From positions 32,028 to 96,027 of the forward strand of contig NZ_JBALCO010000016.1 of NCBI RefSeq assembly GCF_036919595.1: a stretch of DNA of 64,000 nucleotides, in the 5' to 3' direction. Below, piece by piece: positions 1-64,000 of this stretch. A program made the position numbers and the translations under genes. The notes beneath the pieces are model-generated. The model was given only the letters and a program-made list of their open reading frames with translations, ran no database searches and was not told the DNA's origin. The first letter of the stretch is position 1. Every line of letters starts with the position of its first letter. The DNA comes from Nostoc sp. (GTDB lineage Bacteria; Cyanobacteriota; Cyanobacteriia; Cyanobacteriales; Nostocaceae).

Positions 1-820
1 TCGTTTTCCCATGACCAGGGGACAGAGCGTGTAAACCACCCCATAAAAAGGCGATCGCTAAAGCTATTAGAATAGTCAAGAAATTATGATTTTCCTGAGT
101 AATCAGGCTAGTAAAGACATCGTTGCTTCTTCCTGTCAAAGCATTATCTAAGCGGCTGGATGATTTAACTTCCGGTGGAGGCGCTTGTTGACTAGATGTC
201 ACAGACGGATCGAGTTTAAACTCAATGCGACGCTGGTCGAGAGGACTGCTTAGTAAATTCGTGGGGTAATCTCTCAAGCGGTTGGTAATACTCAAAGAGG
301 TGAAATCACCTTGAATAGGAACGCCATCTGCAACCACAGTAATCTCACGCCAGCCCAAGCGCTGTGGATAAAACTGATCTTCAAATATTAACTGATTCGC
401 ACCTACTAACTCCGTTGTCCCATGAAAGTTACAACTCAGCCGCAGTGTAGATAATCCTCCTACACCTGGAGGAAATTCGACTGTTGATTTGATCAAAGAA
501 AGTGCTAGAGCCTGTTTATTGATCAACAGTTCCAGATGTGAGTTGACTTCCTGGCATTTTTGGTCAGGGTATTGAACCGTCTCTAGAGGTTCAGCTTTGC
601 GGTTGTGATTGGTATCTAACTGATTAATTTCTTGAAAAGTAGGAATTTCTGCCATGTCTAGAACATAATCAATCCCTACACCATCGGTTGCTACCTGCAC
701 TCCTGCGTAGTGATTGATGGTGAAATTGCCTAAAGGATGGGCATTTGCCCTCGGCATCCAAAAAAAACATATTGCGATAATTGCAGTACTCCAAGCCAAG
801 CAATACAGCAGCTTTTTCAT
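1..820 (-). CDS. High-affinity nickel/cobalt transporter (NiCoT/RcnA-like) with N-terminal exported domain; 3' end runs off the window
   Basis: Not in ORF track. Hand translation from ATG at 820: MKKLLYCLAWSTAIIAICFFWMPRANAHPLGNFTINHY...FLTILIALAIAFLWGGLHALSPGHGKT. Signal peptide, HPLGNF motif and the NiCoT/RcnA HAxxPGHGK motif; GGAG RBS upstream. Confidence 0.85.
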   Translation of the reverse strand, partial: MKKLLYCLAWSTAIIAICFFWMPRANAHPLGNFTINHYAGVQVATDGVGIDYVLDMAEIPTFQEINQLDTNHNRKAEPLETVQYPDQKCQEVNSHLELLINKQALALSLIKSTVEFPPGVGGLSTLRLSCNFHGTTELVGANQLIFEDQFYPQRLGWREITVVADGVPIQGDFTSLSITNRLRDYPTNLLSSPLDQRRIEFKLDPSVTSSQQAPPPEVKSSSRLDNALTGRSNDVFTSLITQENHNFLTILIALAIAFLWGGLHALSPGHGKT

Positions 821-838
821 AAAGAACTCCCTATAGCG

Positions 839-2239
839 TTAGGAGTGGGAGAGGTTATTTTGAGAGACAGAACGCGTTAAGTTTGCCAAGACTTGACGAG
901 CTTGATCAGCATACTTGTGATGAAATTGAGGATTGAGGCTAACAGCTTGAGTTAGTCGCTTTATTGCTGACTCACGGTTATTTAAGTGAAGCGCAATCAT
1001 GCCAGCATGGAATTGCAGCAAGGCATCCTCTGTCCCCAAGCGAGTTGCCCGTTGGGCTGCCCGTTGGGCTTCTTGCCATTGCCCATTAGCCGCAGCTGCC
1101 CAAGCCAAAGTATCCTCTGCATATACATCGTCTCGCACTGCTACTTCACTACGGGCAATCTCTAGTGCCTCTGTTAAATGAATTCCGTGTTCGGTGTAGT
1201 AGACAGCCAGAGCGCGATCATAGATTCCTTTAACCTTGCTCAGGTAAGCCACTACCCCGATCAAATCTTCAGTTTCAGTTGCACCTTTTTGGTCGAGAAG
1301 AGCTAGTTGAGCATCAGCCTTATACGAGAGCGTTTCCACCTGTGGCATCAGTTCTATACCCTGGTTTGCTGCATTCAGAGCATCTTGCCAGCGATGCTGG
1401 GCCGCATAGAGGCGGGCTAATCCTGTAAACGCAGCTATATGCCGTGGGAAGAGGTCAAGAGCTTCCCGATATCGCTGCTCAGACAGGGCTAAATCCCCGG
1501 CTGCAAAAGCAAGATCCCCAGTCCGCACATGAAACCAAGCACGAGTTTCTGCGCTCATCGTGTAGAAAGAATCCATTTCCTGCATAGCTTCATTTAACAG
1601 TTGCCGTGCCGATGCTTGATTGCCAGTTAACTCTAAGTAACGGGCGACAACTGCGTTCTGACCAAAGTTTGATTCTTTCTCAGGAAGGTTCTGCAATAAT
1701 TGATGAGCTGCTTCATAGTCGCCCAACTCCATCTGAATCGATGCCCTCAGTGAGACAATATTGGGATTATCAATAGATGAATTATTTAATACTTCTAAAG
1801 CTGACCGAAACTGGTGTTGAGATAGTAAAGCTGATGCTAGGAGCATGGAGGAAACCTGATTATGGCGCGGCTGTAGTGCCAGGGATCTACGTGCCGCTTG
1901 TTCTGCTCGTAACACATCGTCTATATCTGCCATTTCTCGAAAGCGCCTCAAATATTGATCAGCCAATAGACGTAAAAATATTGAGGAATTGGGAGATTGA
2001 GCAACTTTCTCCTCATAGACGCTGATAATATGCGATCGCTGTAAATAATCGGGGAAGACTAAATCTGACTGCTGAACTGGTAATATCTGCCTGGAATTAA
2101 CAGTCAGCAGTTGCACAAGAGAGGAGTATGTGCCTAACTTACCATTGGTGTAGCCTAAACTTAGCGCTTGTGTATCAGAGGGTCTTAGTAAAACCAGTAG
2201 GCTAGTTAGCGCTAACACCCATAGTATTCGTAGATGCAT
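839..2239 (-). CDS. Exported tetratricopeptide-repeat protein
   Basis: Signal peptide followed by repeated helical TPR-like units (e.g. GDLALSEQRYREALDLFPRHIAAFTGLARLY); 5 bp from the upstream gene. Confidence 0.85.
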   Translation of the reverse strand: MHLRILWVLALTSLLVLLRPSDTQALSLGYTNGKLGTYSSLVQLLTVNSRQILPVQQSDLVFPDYLQRSHIISVYEEKVAQSPNSSIFLRLLADQYLRRFREMADIDDVLRAEQAARRSLALQPRHNQVSSMLLASALLSQHQFRSALEVLNNSSIDNPNIVSLRASIQMELGDYEAAHQLLQNLPEKESNFGQNAVVARYLELTGNQASARQLLNEAMQEMDSFYTMSAETRAWFHVRTGDLAFAAGDLALSEQRYREALDLFPRHIAAFTGLARLYAAQHRWQDALNAANQGIELMPQVETLSYKADAQLALLDQKGATETEDLIGVVAYLSKVKGIYDRALAVYYTEHGIHLTEALEIARSEVAVRDDVYAEDTLAWAAAANGQWQEAQRAAQRATRLGTEDALLQFHAGMIALHLNNRESAIKRLTQAVSLNPQFHHKYADQARQVLANLTRSVSQNNLSHS

Positions 2240-2244
2240 AAACC

Positions 2245-3525
2245 TTACAAAGGATTACCTAAATAAGGGAAGGTAGGAAGAAAGTTGGCATCATTAGGCC
2301 CAACATTATCGCTAGTCAGCCCCGGAATTTCGCCTGTAGTAATCCCTGTAACTGCATTACCAAAGACAACAGATGCTGTGACATCGATTACGTCATCTTT
2401 TGGTCTTCTACCACCAAAATTGTTGCCTAACTGAGTACCAAAATAACTACCGTTAGGTTTGGAAAGGTCAGCTTGGATAACATCAGGAATCGCCACTGAG
2501 ATCACTGCATCAGCTATGCCTTGAGGTCTACCAATCGCATTCACAAAGGCTCGAATGAATTGGGATTGATTGCTAGCGTCTTGGGTTGGTGTCTGAATAT
2601 TACTATTATTATGAGCTTGAAAGTCCATAAAAAGTTCATTCAGGGCTGGAACTGCTAACCGCTCAATCTGAGCAAAATTCTGATTTCTGAATCTAGGAGT
2701 TTCAACACTAGTTGTTATCCAAACACCAATCTTGCCATTACCAAGCTCTTGCCTGGGTAGCTCGACAATAATTGAGTGGACATTGAATGGGGCTAGGGTG
2801 TCTTGTGCTTGTCCAGATGGTCTAAAGGAAAGAACTTGGAAGGGAGGACTGGGATTAGGCTGAAGGCTATAGTTCCGATCCGGGATGATTTTGAAGAACT
2901 GTTCCAAATCAAAAAAGAACGGGTCTTTCCGTGTGCCAACAAAGAACTTTGTGGGGTTAATGCCGTTGAAGGAGAATGTTTGGTTGAGTGGCACTGTCCT
3001 ACTTACTGGAAGTAAAGCTGACGTTGTTCCTACATTGATTGGAGAAGTTGGGCGGCTGACTGTGACAGTTTGGTTTGAGCCTGTGCCATTTATTTTGAAT
3101 TGAAGTACGATATCTTCAATACTGTCACCAGTGTTATCAATATTGAACTGATAAAGAACATTTGGATCGAATGGTCTCATTTCACCAGAAACAATCAGAG
3201 GGTCGAAATCCATTACAAGGACAACATTGTTGGGGTCTGCGGGACTTTCAAACACAAACAAATCTGTGAGATCCGCAGCAGTGAGCTTAGTGGCAAGAAA
3301 GGTTGTGTCCTGGTGGTCTGAAGCCAAAGCTTTAGGGGTTGCATAGATTAGAACTACGAGCAAAATAGCAACAGTTGCCATTAAGGCACGAAAAAAACGA
3401 GTAGCTCTAGTCCAATATAGCGATCGCTTGATCGGAAAAAATGCCATATTTTGCACTAGTTTCTCTATGCGTACCCAGCCTTTAATTGGTATAAAAGAGG
3501 TGATACTCCGAGCATTTATTTTCAT
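2245..3525 (-). CDS. DUF4331-family exported protein
   Basis: Signal peptide ending ALA-SDHQD, DLTDLFVF, RKDPFFFD, GRRPKDDVID and FPYLGNP motifs as recalled for DUF4331; strong AAGGAGG RBS. Confidence 0.8.
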   Translation of the reverse strand: MKINARSITSFIPIKGWVRIEKLVQNMAFFPIKRSLYWTRATRFFRALMATVAILLVVLIYATPKALASDHQDTTFLATKLTAADLTDLFVFESPADPNNVVLVMDFDPLIVSGEMRPFDPNVLYQFNIDNTGDSIEDIVLQFKINGTGSNQTVTVSRPTSPINVGTTSALLPVSRTVPLNQTFSFNGINPTKFFVGTRKDPFFFDLEQFFKIIPDRNYSLQPNPSPPFQVLSFRPSGQAQDTLAPFNVHSIIVELPRQELGNGKIGVWITTSVETPRFRNQNFAQIERLAVPALNELFMDFQAHNNSNIQTPTQDASNQSQFIRAFVNAIGRPQGIADAVISVAIPDVIQADLSKPNGSYFGTQLGNNFGGRRPKDDVIDVTASVVFGNAVTGITTGEIPGLTSDNVGPNDANFLPTFPYLGNPL

Positions 3526-3586
3526 AATTGCCCTCCTTGAGGTGTTTTGTATCTTCTATTGTATGTATATATTTACGTGAAAATAG

Positions 3587-3604
3587 CAAGTTGATAGCAA
3601 CTTG
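3587..3604. promoter_or_regulatory. 7-4-7 palindrome, possible operator of the DUF4331 operon
   Basis: CAAGTTG-ATAG-CAACTTG about 60 bp upstream of the start codon at 3525. Confidence 0.35.
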
Positions 3605-3666
3605 ATTCATATTTCAAAAAAGACTGCGGTTATTACCGAAGTGCCTCACAGCTTATTGGCTCCTAA

Positions 3667-3760
3667 TAGTACAGCGTTGCGGAAATAAACAACCCATTTC
3701 AAATCACCGAAACGTTTACGCCGTCTTTTTTTGACTTTTGGCTTCTGCTTTGCGGTACTA
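3667..3760. mobile_element. Small MITE with TA-bounded imperfect terminal inverted repeats
   Basis: Left TAGTACAGCGTTGCGGAA; right end reverse complement TAGTACCGCAAAGCAGAA; internal heptamer-like TTTTGAC/TTTTGGC units. Confidence 0.55.
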
Positions 3761-4350
3761 GTCACTTAACAGACCAAAAGTTGCTCACTTTTCTAGTTTA
3801 AAGTTTTAAGACTTATACAATGTATGTACTACGTAAATTTAGGTATTTCAGTTAGATTATTCCACCAGTCGCTATTTAGTAAGTCCGCATAGTACTTTTC
3901 TATTACATATAAGTATGTGATTGCGAATGAGACGTACTCCTACCGAGAAGCAAGCTACACCTTGGTCTCTAAGAGTTGCGATCGCAATGATTTCAGATAA
4001 TTTATATTTAGTTGCATAGTTAGGTTTATTCGTGCCTATCTACTTCCAGTCTCACTTCTTGATATTTTCTTATATGTTTTGAAGCAGGAGCCATTGACAG
4101 AGCGCTTCAGTGTTTCTCTTTTTGTTTGACAATGCTACCAAAGCCCCTCTCTGGAAAAATTTACAGACTTATTTAAGAGTTGAACCATCTGCCCATAGTT
4201 TTGTATTCCCAGACAATTAGCTAAAAAATAAATCCAAAGATAGATTGACAACACATTTGTTCGCCGGAAGTATCCTGCCTTCGTAGCAAACTAGTTATAA
4301 TTATTTTCCATCTCACTCAGAAATTAAATTATCATCTACACAGTATTTAT

Positions 4351-6026: not shown

Positions 6027-6137
6027 CTTATGTGTTGAGATTTTGGCTTAACTACTAATCTAGCTAGATTAGACATCTTGCAAAAATCCTGGTTTATTGT
6101 CTAAAACCACAGATAAACTGCGATTAACACCGATGAA

Positions 6138-7517
6138 TTATTTATGCTGATCTGTGGTTTCATTTTCAACACTTTTCCTTCGCCAAGCTGGTTTCACAAC
6201 CTGACGACTACGGGCAATCACTAGAGAATCATCAGGCACATCTTCTGTAACTGTAGAACCAGCTGCGACGTAGACATCATCTCCCAAGGTGAGTGGAGCC
6301 ACTAAAACGCTATTAGAACCCGTTTTCGTGCGATCGCCTATTTTGGTACGGTGTTTCTTTACGCCATCATAATTGGCAGTAATTGTACCAGCACCAATAT
6401 TCACTTGATTACCGACAACGCTATCACCTATATACGACAAATGTGCTGCATTCGTGCGATCGCCTAATTGCGTATTTTTCAATTCCACAAAATTCCCCAC
6501 CCGGCAACCAGCACCCACTTGTACCTGACCGCGCAAATGAGCATAGGGGCCAATTCGGCTTCCTGCCTGTACGGTGCTATCTGTTACTACTGAATATTGC
6601 ACCGTGACATTTTCACTCAACTGACTATTTTTAATTAAACTTCCCGGTCCAATGTGACTTCCTGTTTTAATCACCGTATTTCCCCGTAGGTGAGTTTGTG
6701 GTTCAATAATTACATCTGTCTGTAATTCTACTGTTTCATCAATGGTGATGCTTGTGGGGTCGATGAGGGTGACACCCGCCAGCATCCATTTTTCCTTGAC
6801 TCGTTTTTGCAAAATTTCAGATGCTGTTGCCAGCTGCAGGCGATCATTAATGCCAAGAATTTCTTGGTAATCTTCCACGTCCACTGCCATCACTTGTCCG
6901 ACCTGAGTCACAGCATCAGTGAGATAGTATTCTTTTTGGGCATTGTTTGTCTGTAGATGGGGCAGCACCTTTGCCAAATCTTGCCAGCCGAAGCAGTAAA
7001 CTCCAGCGTTAATCCGCTGATTTTGTCTTTGAGCAGCAGTACAATCCTTGTGTTCGACCATTTGCTGGACAATATTTTCATCGTTACAAAAAACTCGCCC
7101 GTAGCCCGTGGGGTCGAGTAGGTGCGATGTGAGAATAGTCGCGGCGTTTTGATTTCGGGTGTGAGTTTGTAACATCTGCTTGAGGGTTTCGCTGCGTATC
7201 AACGGTAAATCGCCGTTAAGTATCAGCAAATCCCCAGTGTAGTCTTCCAAGTGAGGAAGTAATTGCTGGATGGCATGACCTGTTCCCAGTTGCACACTCT
7301 GTTCGACAAACTCCAAGCTCTTAATTGAATGCATGGCGGCTTGCACTTCCTCGGACTGATACCCCACAATCACGATTCGCCGTGAGGGCGAAAGTGGTTC
7401 TACACTTTCGAGAACTCTCTCAACTAGCGATCGCCCACCCAAAGAATGTAAAACCTTAGGTAAGCGTGATTTCATCCGTGTGCCGCGTCCCGCCGCTAGA
7501 ACTGCTACAACTACCAT
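6138..7517 (-). CDS. glmU: Bifunctional UDP-N-acetylglucosamine pyrophosphorylase / glucosamine-1-phosphate N-acetyltransferase
   Basis: [24 protein letters not shown], hexapeptide repeats, NYDGVKKH. Confidence 0.97.
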
Positions 7518-7716
7518 AATTAGCTATCAGCTATCAGTGAAATTATGATTAATCCTGTTGGTACTTTAAGATTTAGCCTCAAATCATACCAGCAAATCAT
7601 AGAAGAGTAAAATATAAAAGGAGTCAAAAGAACTACTTTCGTAGAAGGCGGAGATTATAAGACCAATTCGCGCTCATTACAGCAGCTACAAATCATTATC
7701 CCTTACTCCCTACTCT

Positions 7717-8796
7717 CTACTCTTTTTCATGACCAGAGCTAATAAATTCGGCAAACTGCTGCATTAGTTTGGGATTACGCCAACCGGAATCAGCTTCTTC
7801 TTGCATCACTGAAAGTGCTTCTGCTGAAGTAAAAGCTCTTTTGTAAGGTCGTTTGCTGGTCAAAGCATCGTAAATATCAATTAACTGAAATACTTGCGCC
7901 AAGTAGGGAATATCATTTCCCTTGAGTCCATCACAGTAGCCTGAGCCATTCCAGCGTTCGTGGTGATGACGAATAATCGGAATTACACCCCGCATACTGC
8001 GTAGTGGCTGGCAGATTTTTTCCCCAATCAAAACGTGCTGCTGCATGATCTGCCAATCTTCAAGGGTGAGTTTGTCTTTTTTCAGCAGCACTGCATCGGG
8101 AATACCCACCTTGCCGATATCGTGGAGATAACCAGCCCACATCAAATCTCGAATTTGGTAGCGTGAGAGATTGAGGTATTCACCAAAAACTTGTCCCAAT
8201 TTCACCAAGCGTTCACAATGGTCGCCTGTATTGGGATCGCGACTTTCAATCGACATGGCAATGGAAAATAGTACTTGTTCAGCATGGTCCAAATCTTCGT
8301 TCAGACGCTTTTGCCGCACCAAAGACTTTACACGCGCCGCTAGTTCCACACGATCAAAGGGTTTGGTGAGAAAATCATCTGCCCCAACTTCAATTCCCCG
8401 AATGCGCGATCGCCTGTCATTTAACGCTGTAATAAAAATCACTGGAATTAGCCTGGTCTGCTCATCCTGTTTAAGCAATTGGCACACTTCAAATCCATCC
8501 ATTCCTGGCATCATCACATCCAGCAAAATTAAATCTGGTTGTTTTTGAGTTACCAATCCTACAACAATGTAACCACTGTCTGCCTCAATTACTTCGTATC
8601 CTTCCATCCCCAAAAGGGCAACAGCAGTCATCCGACTGGCGGCATGATCGTCAACGACTAAAACCTTTGGCGGATCTAAATCAAACCCATTCACTTTAGA
8701 ACCTTTGGCTTGTAGGCTTCTAGAGACCGATAAATCATCACCACAATTAACATCAGCTTTTATCCAAGAATACACCGCTTCGCTATCTTCAAGCAT
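7717..8796 (-). CDS. Response regulator receiver + HD-GYP (c-di-GMP phosphodiesterase-type) protein
   Basis: VLVVDD...LLDVMMPGMDG...DFLTKP receiver; HCERL, LHDIGK, HHERWNGSGYCDGL, DIYDALTSKRPYK. Confidence 0.9.
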   Translation of the reverse strand: MLEDSEAVYSWIKADVNCGDDLSVSRSLQAKGSKVNGFDLDPPKVLVVDDHAASRMTAVALLGMEGYEVIEADSGYIVVGLVTQKQPDLILLDVMMPGMDGFEVCQLLKQDEQTRLIPVIFITALNDRRSRIRGIEVGADDFLTKPFDRVELAARVKSLVRQKRLNEDLDHAEQVLFSIAMSIESRDPNTGDHCERLVKLGQVFGEYLNLSRYQIRDLMWAGYLHDIGKVGIPDAVLLKKDKLTLEDWQIMQQHVLIGEKICQPLRSMRGVIPIIRHHHERWNGSGYCDGLKGNDIPYLAQVFQLIDIYDALTSKRPYKRAFTSAEALSVMQEEADSGWRNPKLMQQFAEFISSGHEKE

Positions 8797-9128
8797 AAGG
8801 TCTTTTTTAGATAAGCTTATCAGGTTTTTTACGGGGATTTTTCAACATGGTAACGCCAGAAAGCATTGTAATTGCTTGCTTTATATCAAGATATCGGGTT
8901 TTGAGTTGGAAGCCTTGATAGTAACATTAAGCATATATGTTTATAGTTACTCAGTTCTAACAACACTCAAATACTCTTAAATCAGTATGTAAAATTAGAT
9001 ACTATCACAACTTTAATTTATTTGGCTCGGAAAAACTCGTTGCGTGAGTATCTGGAAAGGAAATCAGAATTATTGGAAAATATAGATAATTTGTCTGGAA
9101 TTAAGGACTGAGGATGAGGTCTGGAGTT

Positions 9129-9157
9129 GCCGCAGCTACGCCCGTCGTAGATATCGC
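9129..9157 (-). repeat. Diverged HIP1-splitting 21-nt repeat (SDR5-like)
   Basis: GCC + 21 nt (GCAGCTACGCCCGTCGTAGAT) + ATCGC; resembles the reverse complement of the copy at 62697. Confidence 0.55.
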
Positions 9158-9164
9158 TCCCTAA

Positions 9165-10133
9165 CTAGAAACTAGGCCCCATAAAATCCCTGCTTTGTGT
9201 TCCCAATAGCCACCTTTTTCGCCAGCGGGAGGTAGGTTCGAGTGAAGAGGCTTGTTGCTCTTGTTGTCGCCGTTTCACTATGACTTCGGTTGGATCACTC
9301 AATTGAGGATCGCGATAAGCAATGGCAGCACGGGTTAGCAAGTGTTCTTTTTCAGCTTGTGACAGGGTAGTAAGTGCTGTTAGCGGATAGCTATAGTTTA
9401 GCCCGTATCGAGTGTTAAATATTGAATTATTTTTAGAATCAATACTTAGAGAGTGAGCTGCCACAGTACCAGGCGATCGCCTTCCCACGGGTGGAGTAGA
9501 ACCTACCACCAAACCAGCAGATAAAAGTGCTGTGCGTACAGCAGCAGAACAAGAATAGGTGGCTAATAAACCATCTGGATGTAAACACAACGACAGCTGT
9601 TTTATAAATTCAACAGTCCATAATTGAGGACACTGTGGTGGTGAAAAGGGATCAAGGAAAATTGCATCTGCCCAGAAACCCGACTGACGTACTAGCGTTA
9701 TCGTAGTTCTAGCATCGCCAATTAGGAGCTTCGCTTTCAGGCAAGGTGTTTGCACTTGATGCTCAAAAGCTAGCTCTTTCAAAATTTCAATATAGTTACA
9801 GTTCCAATTGTCGAACAAGTGATGAACGATCGCAGCTTGTGGCACTGCTGGATTGAGTTCTAAGCCGATTACTTCAACACAACAACTGGGATTCACTGCC
9901 CAAATTGTCTGCAAAGCAGCAGCTGTGTTATATCCTAGACCATAACAAACATCCAACAGTCGCAAGACTGGTTTTTGAGCGGCTGTAGCCAGTTGAGTCG
10001 GTTCTACAAACTTGAAAAAACTCTCCTGCCTAGCTCCATTATGGCTGTGAAAGGATTCACCAAACTCTTGAGAGACAAAGGTGAAAGAACCATCTGCTGT
10101 TAACTTAGGTGTAAAATTATCTAAGTTTGACAT
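9165..10133 (-). CDS. MnmC-N/MnmD-like SAM-dependent tRNA methyltransferase
   Basis: TADGSFT, FGESFHS, LDVCYGLGYN, LLIGDAR, DAIFLDPFSPPQCPQLWT, ATYSCS. Start placed at ATG 10133 (track start 10160). Confidence 0.85.
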   Translation of the reverse strand: MSNLDNFTPKLTADGSFTFVSQEFGESFHSHNGARQESFFKFVEPTQLATAAQKPVLRLLDVCYGLGYNTAAALQTIWAVNPSCCVEVIGLELNPAVPQAAIVHHLFDNWNCNYIEILKELAFEHQVQTPCLKAKLLIGDARTTITLVRQSGFWADAIFLDPFSPPQCPQLWTVEFIKQLSLCLHPDGLLATYSCSAAVRTALLSAGLVVGSTPPVGRRSPGTVAAHSLSIDSKNNSIFNTRYGLNYSYPLTALTTLSQAEKEHLLTRAAIAYRDPQLSDPTEVIVKRRQQEQQASSLEPTSRWRKRWLLGTQSRDFMGPSF

Positions 10134-59514: not shown

Positions 59515-59955
59515 ATGGAAGATTACCAAGCCGCTTTTATGCAGCGTCACCTTGATACTGAAATATTATGTAGAAAAGAATCGGAAAGAAGAGTAGCCGC
59601 TATGCACTTTGGAGGTGTAACCATTGAGTGTTTATTAAAAGCAATGATTTTTGCTACCTTAGCAAAGGGTGCAACTCAGGAATGGAAGACAGATTCTACT
59701 AATCCTGGGCATACTATTACTAATCCGGGACATAGTTATATAGAAGCATTAAATCGGCACAATCGACTTAAATCTAGAATTGCTAATTTTCCTGAAGTGC
59801 GAAAATGGCTTAATGAAGTGGAAAATCCAAATAGCCAAAATTTTATAGATATGCGTTATTGTGGCCTTGAGCCTGATGATGAAAGTTACAAACGCTGGTT
59901 AAAAGCTTATCAGAATATCAAGGGGTGGTTACAAAAGCAAGCTACTCAACTTTAA
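59515..59955 (+). CDS. HEPN-domain protein
   Basis: HFGGVTIECLLKAMI (ExxLKA), GHSYIEAL (H..L) and DMRY (RY) in an all-helical 146-aa protein: pattern of MNT-associated HEPN domains. Confidence 0.7.
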   Translation: MEDYQAAFMQRHLDTEILCRKESERRVAAMHFGGVTIECLLKAMIFATLAKGATQEWKTDSTNPGHTITNPGHSYIEALNRHNRLKSRIANFPEVRKWLNEVENPNSQNFIDMRYCGLEPDDESYKRWLKAYQNIKGWLQKQATQL

Positions 59956-59967
59956 AGAGGTGGTCAA

Positions 59968-62661
59968 ATGCAAGAAAATTGGCAAGTTTTGCTAAAGAAA
60001 GAAATTGCAAACCAATATGTGCATAATTCACAAGAATGGGTTGATTTAAATATTTCTACATCAGGTTTATTGAATTTGACTATTGTAAGCGATCGCTTTA
60101 TTAATTTATCTATTCCTCAGAGGAAAGAAGAAAGTTTAAATTTACTTAAATCACAAGTTCCTCATTTATCTCCTGGGTTTATTTCTTTATATACGCTTCA
60201 AGAAGCAGATTCACTAAATCTTTCAGCACCGCAGGCTTTTAATACAGCTTCAGTACAAACTTGGCAAGATTTAGCAATTCAAGCAGCAAATCCGCAAAAT
60301 CAACCTCAACTTCCGCAGCGTGAACCCAGTTTACCCAGAACCGTAACCTTTTATTCCTTTAAAGGAGGAGTAGGTAGAACTACTGCATTAACCCATGTTG
60401 CTTCAATTTTGGCAATGCGTGGTCTTAAAGTCGTAGCTGTGGATTTAGATTTAGAAGCACCTGGCTTGAGTACAGCATTCAATCTCAAACCTCAACCAAA
60501 GTATGGAATAGTTGACTATTTTTATGAGCGTTCCTACTTACCAGAAGACGTAGAACCAAGTATTTCAATTGCTGAAATATTTGGTGAAGTGAAAATCTCT
60601 AACGCCACAGGAAGATTATTTGTTGTTCCTGCTGGTTGTCTTAATCTTGATTATGTCTCTAAAGTTGATGATCTTCATGCAACTACTATTATTGATAGAG
60701 ATCAAAGTCTTTGGTCTGTTTTTAAACGTGAGATTTACGAACAATTAAAACCTGATATTATCTTAATTGATTCGAGAACTGGAATCAATCAATGGGGAGC
60801 TTTATCACTAATTCAAGCAGCTGACGAAGCAATTGTATTTCTTTTTCCTAACGAGCAAAATAAACAAGGAATAGAACTTTTAATACAATCACTACAATGG
60901 TTAAAAAACTTATCTATTAATTTTGTTTTTTCTCCTGTTCCTGATGTTACTGAGATTGGTCTTTCAAAAGTAAAACAAATTTGGTACTCATTGCTGAACA
61001 GATTAAATACGGTAACAAATGAAAACTATGAAACAGATGAAGATGAGCCAGATTTAGATAATTCTCAAACTCCAATAGAAAAACTTTTAGTAGTCCCTTA
61101 TCTTTTGCCAATCGCTTTGGCTGATAGCTATCCTGTACAAGGTATGCAAGATTACTACACAAAAATTGCTAACTTAATTGATGAAAAAACTGATGAATTG
61201 AAACGTAGCAATGTTTTAAATACAATAGATCATCGGTGGGATATTATTGAAAGTTTGCGATTTCCTGAAGTAAATGCTGCCGATCCAAAACAAGATTTGA
61301 ATTTATTATTTCAGCGTACTACTGATTTTGAAAGATTTTTAGACGATACAACCTGTCTAATTAGAGGGCGAAAAGGCACAGGAAAAACTGCACTTTATTG
61401 GCTTTTTCTAAAACACAAAAGTGTTGCTCAAAAATTAGCTCATGGACGGTTAGATAATACTGTATTTTTGTCAGCACATGGGAGATTTCAGGAAAGTCGC
61501 CCATCTCGTGATGAATTTCAAATTATCCATCAAACTTTACAACAAAATAGAGGCACATGGGAAGCTTTCTGGAGAGCTTATTTACTATTTAGATGTCATC
61601 AGGAAAATTTGTTTAACTTTCCTAAAGGAAAGAAAAGCGCAAAGTATAGTGAATTGAGGAAAATTATTAACAATTTACCTAAAGAAAGATGGCAGTCTGA
61701 ATCTACTCAAGTTTTGTTAGAATTATCTACTAACTCTGAACTTCGCCTCATAGTCAAAGATGCCATAGATATTCTGCTTAATGAAGAAACCAAAAATAAT
61801 TCTCAAAAACTGTGGTTTCTTTACGATGATTTAGATGAAGATTTTCCTGAAGTAGGAGGAATAAGACAGCAAGCACTTACTGGATTATTTCAATTAGTAC
61901 AATCTTGTGATGCTAACAGATTAACAGAAATTAGATTCAAAATCTTCTTAAGAGAAGATATATGGAATCGTTTAAGTTTTGACAATAAAAGTCATTTTAC
62001 TGGACGGGATATTATCTTACAGTGGACTAGGATTGATTTTTTACGATTAGCACTTCGTCAAGCAATACAATCTGAAGATTTCAAGAATTTGGTTGACCGT
62101 ATTTCTCCTGTCGCTTTTGAAAGTATTGATCAAGCTACAGAAGAGGCAATTGATAAAGCCTTAGAATTACTGTGGGGAAGTCGTCGCCGAGGTGGAAATA
62201 GAGCTAAAAATGTATCTCGATGGGTTTATGAGCGATTAACAGACTCAAGTAACACTACTTTTCCTCGGAGTTTAAGTATATTACTTAAAGGAGCAAAAGA
62301 ACAAGAACTAACCTATAAGGGACAATCATCAAGCAAATTCCGTACAGATCGCCTACTTCAAGGAAAATCCTTAGAATTTGGTTTGAAAAAAGCATCAGAA
62401 AAGCGGTGTGAAGAAATTAAAGAGGAATACCCTGATTTGACTAAATTTTTTGATTATCTTAAGGGTAAATTGGCTTTCTTATCTAAAGAACAGTTACAAA
62501 CAGTATGGCAAGAGTCAGCACATGATATAGCAGACTTTGAAGAATTTGCTTCTTTTTTAAGTGAAATTGGCATTATTGAATGGCGCGAAAAAGAGAAACG
62601 CTATAAGGTTGCTGATATCTATGTGTATGGTTTTGAAATGGATCGTAGAGGCGCGGTATAA
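59968..62661 (+). CDS. Fusion protein: MNT/BolA-like N-terminus + ParA/MinD-like ATPase + STAND (Sll1717-like) ATPase + winged helix
   Basis: FYSFKGGVGRTT (aa ~132), VDLDLEAPG, LIDSRTG; second P-loop GRKGTGKT (aa ~467), Walker B FLYDDLDE (aa ~619), KIFLREDIW, FPR; C-terminal LSEIGII...YKVADIY. Confidence 0.8.
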   Translation: MQENWQVLLKKEIANQYVHNSQEWVDLNISTSGLLNLTIVSDRFINLSIPQRKEESLNLLKSQVPHLSPGFISLYTLQEADSLNLSAPQAFNTASVQTWQDLAIQAANPQNQPQLPQREPSLPRTVTFYSFKGGVGRTTALTHVASILAMRGLKVVAVDLDLEAPGLSTAFNLKPQPKYGIVDYFYERSYLPEDVEPSISIAEIFGEVKISNATGRLFVVPAGCLNLDYVSKVDDLHATTIIDRDQSLWSVFKREIYEQLKPDIILIDSRTGINQWGALSLIQAADEAIVFLFPNEQNKQGIELLIQSLQWLKNLSINFVFSPVPDVTEIGLSKVKQIWYSLLNRLNTVTNENYETDEDEPDLDNSQTPIEKLLVVPYLLPIALADSYPVQGMQDYYTKIANLIDEKTDELKRSNVLNTIDHRWDIIESLRFPEVNAADPKQDLNLLFQRTTDFERFLDDTTCLIRGRKGTGKTALYWLFLKHKSVAQKLAHGRLDNTVFLSAHGRFQESRPSRDEFQIIHQTLQQNRGTWEAFWRAYLLFRCHQENLFNFPKGKKSAKYSELRKIINNLPKERWQSESTQVLLELSTNSELRLIVKDAIDILLNEETKNNSQKLWFLYDDLDEDFPEVGGIRQQALTGLFQLVQSCDANRLTEIRFKIFLREDIWNRLSFDNKSHFTGRDIILQWTRIDFLRLALRQAIQSEDFKNLVDRISPVAFESIDQATEEAIDKALELLWGSRRRGGNRAKNVSRWVYERLTDSSNTTFPRSLSILLKGAKEQELTYKGQSSSKFRTDRLLQGKSLEFGLKKASEKRCEEIKEEYPDLTKFFDYLKGKLAFLSKEQLQTVWQESAHDIADFEEFASFLSEIGIIEWREKEKRYKVADIYVYGFEMDRRGAV

Positions 62662-62696
62662 AAACAAATTTTATCGTATCACTATTTTGAACTACA

Positions 62697-62725
62697 GCGA
62701 TGTCTACGACGGGCTACGCCTACGC
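62697..62725 (+). repeat. 21-nt SDR5-like element inserted in a HIP1 site
   Basis: GCGAT + GTCTACGACGGGCTACGCCTA + CGC. Confidence 0.85.
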
Positions 62726-63239
62726 ACTTCTACTTTTACATAAAAACCCTGGAACAGCAGAATTTACCCAACTACCTGATAATTCAGTTGATTTAGTTAC
62801 TTGTTTTCAAGCTTTCCACTGGTTCAATCCTGAACCAACGTTATCAGAATTTCATCGTACTTTAAAATCGTCAGGATGTTTAGCTGTAGTTTGGAATAAT
62901 CGGGATAAAGAAGATACTTTTACAGCAGAATATAGCCGAATAGTCCACGAAGCATTTAACAATCACCCAGGAGAATCAAGGATGCAGTCAGTAGAGCTAC
63001 TGTTAAAAACTCCTCATTTTATCAACATCCGCGAATCCACTTTTACTTATAGCCAACAGTTAGATTTAACTGGACTTATTGGACGGGCAAAAAGTGTTTC
63101 TTATTTACCGAATGAAGTTTTAGCAGACAACAAATTTATTAATAATTTTCAAGAATTATATCAGCGTTTTTGTAATGAAAGTGGTTTTGTGTACTTGGTC
63201 TATTGCACTAACGTACACCTTGGCGAATCAATTAATTAA
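62700..63239 (+). pseudogene. 5'-truncated class I SAM-dependent methyltransferase
   Basis: GTAEFTQLPDNSVDLVTCFQAFHWF...LAVVWNNRD present, but SAM-binding motif I (xDxGxGxG) absent; similarity starts about 62750. Confidence 0.75.
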
Positions 63240-64000
63240 ATGACTTGTAACTCACAAATTACAGAAGGTTGGCATGGCAAACTTAATTTAGTCTATGCCG
63301 ATCGCCACAACACAACCAAATTAATTTACAGTCACCAACAAGCACCTTTGAAGGTACAACGCCCATTTTACCCAGAAGGGGAAAAAGTTTGTCATAGCGT
63401 AATTTTACATACAGCTGGGGGAATGGTGGGAGGCGATCGCTTATCCTCTAACATCCACCTCCAACCCCAAGCCCAAGCTTTAATCACCACAGCTGCTGCA
63501 AGCAAGATATATCGCAGCAATGGCTTACAAGCTAGACAAACCATCCAGATGCAAGTTGATGCTGGTGCTTGTTTGGAGTGGTTGCCGCAAGAGACAATTT
63601 TATTTAACGACGCGATTTATCGGCAAGATTTACGGGTAGAATTAGCAACCGGGGCCAGTTGGTTAGGCTGGGAAATTACCCGATTTGGTCGCAGTGCTAG
63701 AGGAGAAAAATTTTACCTTGGAGAATGGCGATCGCACACCGAAATTTGGCAAGAGGGTATTCCTTTATGGATTGATCGGCAATACTTACCGGGTAGCGAA
63801 GATATTTTTCACAGTCCCCACGGCTTGGCTGGAAAACCAATAGTAGGTAGTCTCGTTTGGGTTGGTGGTGCAGTTTCAGTAGAAATCGTCGAAAAAACGC
63901 GAAATTTATGGTATGGGGAAGGAAAAGCGGGTGTTACCAGGTTACAACATGGATTATTGTGTCGATATCGCGGTTCTTCCACATCTGAGGTTAGAAACTG
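63240..64000 (+). CDS. ureD: Urease accessory protein UreD (runs off the window)
   Basis: Not in ORF track. MTCNSQITEGWHGKLNLVY...QAPLKVQRPFYPEG..CHSVILHTAGGMVGGDRL...ITTAAASKIYRS...LEWLPQETI. Confidence 0.95.
   Translation, partial: MTCNSQITEGWHGKLNLVYADRHNTTKLIYSHQQAPLKVQRPFYPEGEKVCHSVILHTAGGMVGGDRLSSNIHLQPQAQALITTAAASKIYRSNGLQARQTIQMQVDAGACLEWLPQETILFNDAIYRQDLRVELATGASWLGWEITRFGRSARGEKFYLGEWRSHTEIWQEGIPLWIDRQYLPGSEDIFHSPHGLAGKPIVGSLVWVGGAVSVEIVEKTRNLWYGEGKAGVTRLQHGLLCRYRGSSTSEVRN

Follow-up and report, generated by a model that had tools for sequence, protein, structure and literature searches.

The HINPO system was described in a preprint of 22 October 2026 by Li, Burroughs and Aravind (bioRxiv 10.64898/2026.10.19.760177). 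According to this computational study, the system consists of an upstream HEPN of a new type (PA-HEPN1), a ParA ATPase with an N-terminal domain, and an ORC-CDC6/STAND NTPase that is encoded downstream or fused, and it is enriched in multicellular bacteria. Based on structure searches, the N-terminal domain of the ParA protein was assigned to the Pol-beta nucleotidyltransferase (NTase) superfamily and judged inactive, with a reading as a sensor of nucleotides. Here we analyze a cassette in a stretch of 64,000 nucleotides from Nostoc sp. (RefSeq assembly GCF_036919595.1, contig NZ_JBALCO010000016.1, positions 32,028 to 96,027), referred to as the window, in which a gene for a HEPN-like protein of 146 amino acids (aa) precedes a gene for an 897-aa protein fusing an N-terminal domain, a ParA/MinD-type ATPase and an Sll1717-like NTPase. 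Our main subject is the N-terminal domain of the fusion protein.

Judged by architecture only, the locus matches HINPO as outlined in the preprint, and the system has therefore already been described. In both, an uncharacterised HEPN-like gene stands upstream of a ParA protein that carries an additional N-terminal domain and is accompanied by an ORC-CDC6/STAND-like NTPase, and both occur mainly in filamentous or multicellular bacteria, in our case cyanobacteria and Ktedonobacteraceae. Unlike the Pol-beta NTase given there, however, the N-terminal domain of the window branch tests as BolA-like. The cassette also matches PDC-M28 of PADLOC-DB, whose A profile matches the 146-aa protein and whose B and C profiles match the 897-aa protein. 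The B profile spans the N-terminal domain as well in several homologues. In contrast to PDC-M28, which is itself a computational candidate, the B and C parts are fused here. We thus treat the cassette as a candidate phage-defence system that has already been catalogued computationally. In the literature searched there were no papers on PDC-M28, KGGVGR or Sll1717, no experimental report of protection against phages or mobile elements by a HINPO or PDC-M28 cassette, and no description of a defence system with a BolA-type domain. The novelty lies in the least understood part of the cassette, namely in the assignment of the N-terminal domain to BolA together with the loss of its cluster ligands; the system itself is known as a computational candidate.

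Two further comparisons frame the problem. As in the type VII toxin-antitoxin pair HepT/MntA, made up of a HEPN and a minimal nucleotidyltransferase (MNT), a small HEPN-like gene stands beside one whose product starts with an αββαβ domain. Unlike MntA, this domain lacks NTase motifs and profile similarity, the HEPN-like protein lacks the Rx4-6H motif, the partner is an 897-aa double NTPase, and the HEPN gene comes first. With BolA (Pfam PF01722; E. coli 2dhm, Arabidopsis BolA1 4pug, the BolA domain of SufE1 4pui and yeast Fra2 5y4b) the domain shares the succession of secondary-structure elements, with a tight β1-β2 hairpin and a 3-10 turn following β2, and also the motifs (I/V)VSxxF, an α2 Arg and (Y)TxxE. 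It differs from BolA in lacking both positions that serve as iron-sulfur (Fe-S) and glutaredoxin ligands, in scoring below the Pfam cut-off and in having no adjoining glutaredoxin gene, and from stand-alone BolA in that two NTPases are fused to it within a cassette of the defence type.

The original prediction had left open whether the N-terminus of the fusion is a catalytically dead MNT or a BolA-like domain. It favoured descent from a HEPN-MNT module whose antitoxin lost its AMPylation activity. The first of its two options agrees with the HINPO view published in the preprint; our tests on the window branch disagree. We put the probability at about three in four that aa 1-85 are best explained, as a whole, as a divergent BolA (class II KH-like) domain without Fe-S ligands that serves as an input module, and not as a degenerate MNT. 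Within this explanation, sequence profiles and the fold lend strong support to the homology to BolA.

Fold and family of the N-terminal domain

The domain is conserved and no chance pattern. At E ≤ 0.01, 272 proteins match aa 1-122, the top 120 of them cyanobacterial and 73-100% identical, and when 1.84 billion representative proteins were scanned exhaustively with HMMER, it was found in only 39 clusters at 50% identity. In those clusters long enough to tell, an ATPase domain of the KGGVGR type follows directly 3' of it. Among 30 diverse homologues W24, S41 and T76 are invariant and V40, F44, R52, G70, L74 and A80 nearly so.

Queried as a single sequence, aa 1-122 yielded nothing useful in Pfam, NCBIfam, PADLOC or the PDB, and the BolA signal emerges only with homologues or profiles. 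For profile-profile comparison we built one alignment of BolA proteins from 19 cyanobacterial genomes and another of 18 cyanobacterial MNTs, the latter from further genomes of this order, as the own genome has no match to PF01909 or PF18765. With hhalign, the 30 diverse N-terminal domains aligned to BolA over 73 columns (aa 7-84) with a probability of 96.3% and an E-value of 1.7e-9. The comparison with the MNTs, which alone represented the Pol-beta families, gave 0.13%, level with reversed-sequence controls (0.1-0.4%). The BolA result holds in subsets, with 96.3% for divergent sequences only and 91.9% for close ones. It also recurs in a separate and more divergent group of fused proteins (loci L123-L125), which reaches 95.7% and E 1e-8 against BolA and 0.1% against MNT.

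Other searches agree. Pfam BolA matches 18 N-termini among 19 close homologues and 21 among 30 diverse ones (best E 4.4e-5), and a homologue in a related genome scores 21.6 bits, while none of the 30 matches any Pfam nucleotidyltransferase family even at E ≤ 10. Searching all PDB chains with the 30-sequence profile returned 15 matches, eleven of which are BolA structures, including yeast Fra2, E. coli BolA, the BolA domain of Arabidopsis SufE1, BolA1 and BolA2; none is an MNT. When the family profile was run against the 36,569 open reading frames (ORFs) of its own genome that reach 50 aa or more, it retrieved itself first and the single genuine BolA second (E 0.065). In this 6.6-Mb Nostoc-like genome no MNT is detectable with PF01909, PF18765 or a custom MNT profile. 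Other genomes of the same order contain up to 22 MNTs.

The predicted structure is in line with these results. Over aa 11-90, the AlphaFold2 model derived from the 30-sequence alignment reaches block-mean predicted local distance difference test (pLDDT) scores of 87-95. It consists of α1 (4-17), β1 (24-29), β2 (35-40), a 3-10 turn (42-44), α2 (49-63), β3 (69-75) and α3 (77-82), which is the order of BolA, including the tight β1-β2 hairpin and the short turn after β2. The comparison of such a model with MNT and BolA structures, suggested along with the original prediction, ranked BolA structures first: in a Foldseek search of the PDB, BolA structures occupy ranks 1-4, 6, 7, 9, 11-13, 15 and 17, with template modelling (TM) scores per target of 0.54-0.72, the highest belonging to BolA1. 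KH-like domains of ribosomal protein S3 are interspersed among them. A search of a viral structure library gave no meaningful match.

Motifs were compared position by position in the hhalign alignment. The domain retains the BolA signature of (I/V)VSxxF on β2, an Arg at the start of α2 and LYTxxEA on β3. Of the BolA motif FxGxS...RHR, F44 and R52 are near-invariant, RHR aligning to R52-K53 with mostly Lys or Arg at position 53, and the motif Gly and His are not kept. Opposite the invariant BolA His at the start of β3 (IHAL) stands G70, a position with Gly in at least 90% of the 30 homologues. The loop His (GGGDH) aligns to L34, and the β1-β2 loop has no conserved His or Cys. These two His are the ligands of the [2Fe-2S] cluster in complexes of BolA with monothiol glutaredoxin. 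With both cluster-ligand positions lost in the alignment, an ordinary glutaredoxin or Fe-S BolA was rejected. The genuine BolA of the same genome adjoins a gene for a CGFS glutaredoxin, and the ORF list around the 897-aa gene contains no glutaredoxin-like ORF.

One rival explanation, put forward in the original prediction and in the HINPO preprint, is that the domain is a dead Pol-beta or minimal nucleotidyltransferase ('iNTase'), acting as a sensor of nucleotides or nucleic acids or surviving as a relic of a HEPN-MNT pair. It can draw on the structure-based assignment of the ParA N-terminal domain in HEPN-ParA-ORC/CDC6 systems, as given in the preprint (bioRxiv 10.64898/2026.10.19.760177), on the HEPN-like neighbour and on a similar order of secondary-structure elements. 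Yet BolA came ahead of MNT in every test, the own genome has no detectable MNT, and the catalytic motifs of NTases are conserved in no homologue. The hG[GS] motif after β1 is absent from the window domain and the 30 homologues, and the 5-residue link between β1 and β2 in the model is too short for the element with the GS-helix, NTases having 9-13 residues between GS and DxD. At the place of [DE]x[DE] on β2, positions 34-36 are L-L-N, and no homologue has an acidic residue at the first of them. The third carboxylate is likewise missing from β3, where GF[IL]SLYT contains no acidic residue. We consider a nucleotidyltransferase origin unlikely.

These results bear directly on the original prediction. 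The strings on which it relied, GLLNLTIVSDRFINLSIPQRKEE (aa 33-55) and ISLYTLQEA (aa 72-80), are present in the 897-aa ORF, and it was right that L34-L35-N36 stand where DxD was expected and that the GS motif is missing. Of the resemblance it proposed to MNT or BolA, the BolA half is borne out by profile and fold, and the MNT half is not, given the 0.13% probability, the missing motifs and the short hairpin. A search for homologues retaining DxD found none. Since the likeness to MNTs fails, an origin from a HEPN-MNT toxin-antitoxin pair with an antitoxin that lost AMPylation has no basis left, and with it goes the account of an immune receptor arising from such a pair.

Several observations weigh against the assignment to BolA and the role we attach to it. 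The window domain itself scores only 11.4 bits against Pfam BolA (E 2.3), and all bit scores against this family reported here lie under the gathering cut-off of 25.7 bits. The best Foldseek E-value is 2.6e-3, so that none reaches 1e-3, and one MNT, 1ylq, is among the Foldseek matches, the sole one there, at rank 44 (E 0.068, TM 0.48), which also speaks for the nucleotidyltransferase alternative. BolA and MNT folds share the αββαβ order and structure alone therefore separates them poorly, which is why it is the sequence evidence that settles the choice between the two. The structure-based assignment in the preprint belongs on the same side of the balance, and the functional part of our explanation is one that we only infer. 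The modest individual scores, from Pfam as from Foldseek, could further be taken to mean that this is a small α/β domain unrelated to either BolA or MNT, with a BolA signal caused by convergent motifs. However, the comparison with BolA gives about 96% for each of two separate subfamilies and fails for reversed controls, the best non-self match genome-wide is BolA, and the fold agrees. We therefore regard convergence as highly improbable.

The N-terminal position as a putative input module

To place the domain in a wider context, 201 cyanobacterial genomes were scanned for Sll1717-family NTPases and 20 loci were read. There are at least three types of cassette. ParA, an NTPase of the Sll1717-like kind and a small RY-motif gene upstream are common to all of them, and the difference lies in the module at the N-terminus of ParA. 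The first type carries the BolA-like domain. The second is an unfused arrangement of three genes, which encode a small HEPN-like protein with an RY motif, ParA (458-474 aa) and an Sll1717-like NTPase (about 505-530 aa). Its N-terminal module of about 145-154 aa follows the pattern SVTIIRDVxGKIRLFLEP...YYGxDIWLP...YILERHIAKQxW, has no match in Pfam or the PDB, and shows no hhalign link to the window domain. The third type consists of fusions with another N-terminal module (LTWLDVKR...), a weaker Sll1717-like domain and a small upstream gene of its own with a WRYGG motif. By hhalign, the modules of the second and third type are linked neither to BolA or MNT nor to each other. One of the two, possibly the module of the second type, may correspond to the Pol-beta-like domain described in the HINPO preprint.

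One locus, L114 (genome G075, contig C152:76000-89500), combines two arrangements on the same strand about 2 kb apart: a fused cassette of the BolA type at 719-3881 and an unfused one of three genes at 6031-9350. A TnpB-like ORF of the IS200/IS605 type lies just past the two.

Where the chassis is constant, the variable part usually behaves as an input or specificity module. In these cassettes ParA, NTPase and HEPN are constant and the N-terminal position varies, and we therefore read the BolA-like domain as a swappable and non-catalytic input module; at least three unrelated N-terminal modules on one chassis suggest that the position as such is exchangeable. KH-like folds bind nucleic acid, and a BolA-type domain without Fe-S ligands points to the binding of nucleic acid or a protein partner on the BolA face and not to a nucleotide pocket. 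In the mechanism we propose, the domain would be the exchangeable input of an ATPase switch, and a trigger, either nucleic acid or protein, would bind the conserved face formed by S41, F44, R52, K53 and T76. The signal could then pass through the linker helix to dimerisation or oligomerisation of ParA. The Sll1717/ORC-like NTPase, presumed to sense DNA, would act as a second sensor, and the two together would license the HEPN-like effector. More generally, the domain may serve as an adaptor or sensor without catalytic activity, joined to NTPases and encoded beside a HEPN-like gene.

The linker contains a strongly conserved helix. Residues T98, W99, D101-P109 and N111-Q112 are invariant in 19 cyanobacterial homologues, and W99 and L102 remain at least 90% conserved in a subset of 11 sequences. 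The model shows a helix at 99-107, with low pLDDT in the rest of the linker. Separately, we observed that conservation of the linker helix WQDLAIQAANPQNQ (60262-60303, aa 99-112) among cyanobacterial homologues exceeds that of the BolA-like core. The helix may contact the ParA domain.

The main functional alternative, which keeps the functional idea of the original prediction and drops the MNT ancestry, is that the BolA-like domain mainly docks the upstream HEPN-like protein and holds it inactive until the NTPases fire. Such a role would suit the position of the HEPN-like gene, which is the next gene upstream in 42 of the 44 related loci, and a protein, P0158, in which a HEPN-like part is fused directly 5' of the BolA-like domain. 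On the other hand, sister cassettes with other N-terminal modules also have a small RY-motif gene upstream. A change of module thus leaves this gene in place, although the upstream proteins diverge too. We see docking as possible but rather doubtful.

A more specific version of the input module can also be imagined, in which the BolA fold without its ligands is an immune bait. Through its old partner face it would attract a phage-encoded or phage-altered protein of the glutaredoxin/thioredoxin or Fe-S type, or nucleic acid, and trigger a ParA-STAND switch that releases the HEPN-like effector. We rate this as a long shot. If it were true, the domain would be the first sensor of the BolA superfamily in prokaryotic immunity, and the 'inactive nucleotidyltransferase' in the name HINPO would be wrong for the window branch.

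Cassette features and related loci

The features of the cassette and the coordinates of the sister genes are collected in Table 1. The 146-aa and 897-aa ORFs are separated by 12 bp. For the ParA/MinD-type domain, matches were found to NCBIfam NF047398 (E 2.1e-50), Pfam AAA_31 and CbiA, and PADLOC PDC-M28B (E 6.2e-40), and the Sll1717-like region also gives weak Pfam matches to NACHT and AAA_16.

Table 1. Coordinates of the cassette in the window and of ParA-encoding genes in sister cassettes (locus names precede positions outside the window)
Feature	Position	Strand	Basis or remark
146-aa HEPN-like small protein (PDC-M28A / probable PA-HEPN1)	59515..59955	+	PADLOC, weak Foldseek HEPN matches
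Shine-Dalgarno-like AGAGGTGG	59956..59963	+	read from sequence, 4 nt 5' of ATG
897-aa fusion protein (BolA-like + ParA + Sll1717-like)	59968..62661	+	ORF list
BolA-like domain, aa 1-85	59968..60222	+	AlphaFold2 model, Foldseek, hhalign, Pfam/PDB profiles
Linker, aa 86-122	60223..60333	+	conserved helix TWQDLAIQAANPQNQ (aa 98-112), then Pro/Gln-rich stretch
ParA/MinD-type ATPase domain, aa 123-310, variant Walker A KGGVGR	60334..60897	+	NCBIfam, Pfam, PADLOC
Sll1717-family P-loop NTPase, aa 434-892	61267..62643	+	NCBIfam NF047389 E 1.4e-44; PADLOC PDC-M28C E 1.5e-28
Type 2 ParA gene	L114 7542-8915		
Type 2 ParA gene	L115 2318-3703		
Type 2 ParA gene	L116 2306-3724		
Type 2 ParA gene	L117 4667-6088		
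Type 2 ParA gene	L118 2078-3496		
Type 3 fusion, 900-945 aa	L119 1237-4071		
Type 3 fusion, 900-945 aa	L120 1511-4210		
Type 3 fusion, 900-945 aa	L121 1321-4098		

The 146-aa protein matches PDC-M28A with an E-value of 2.3e-6 and has no match in Pfam or NCBIfam. Its AlphaFold2 model is an all-helical bundle (pLDDT 84), for which the top Foldseek matches are HEPN toxins and the HEPN domain of Csm6, all of them weak (E about 1-8, TM 0.42-0.49). It contains an invariant R114-Y115.

The 44 related loci come from cyanobacteria and two Ktedonobacteraceae. A full-length ATPase fusion of 885-903 aa is encoded in 34 of them, and most of the others are cut by contig ends. Identity between the copies from Ktedonobacteraceae and the proteins of Nostoc is 57-64%. 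P0158 (842 aa) combines the whole system in a single protein, with a HEPN-like part (aa 2-80 match PDC-M28A), a BolA-like domain (186-308), a KGGVGR ParA (312-522) and the start of the Sll1717 part (653-779). Two loci, L061 from Calothrix sp. NIES-4105 and L068 from Microcystis novacekii, encode a shorter protein of BolA-like domain and ParA, of just 425 and 393 aa, respectively; they have no Sll1717-like part within 5 kb downstream, and the A-type gene is still found upstream.

The base composition sets the cassette apart from its surroundings. Together with a truncated methyltransferase-like ORF that follows it (window positions 59700-63300), it has a G+C content of 32-38%, compared with 47-49% in groES/groEL upstream and about 46% downstream. 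The low value is consistent with horizontal acquisition.

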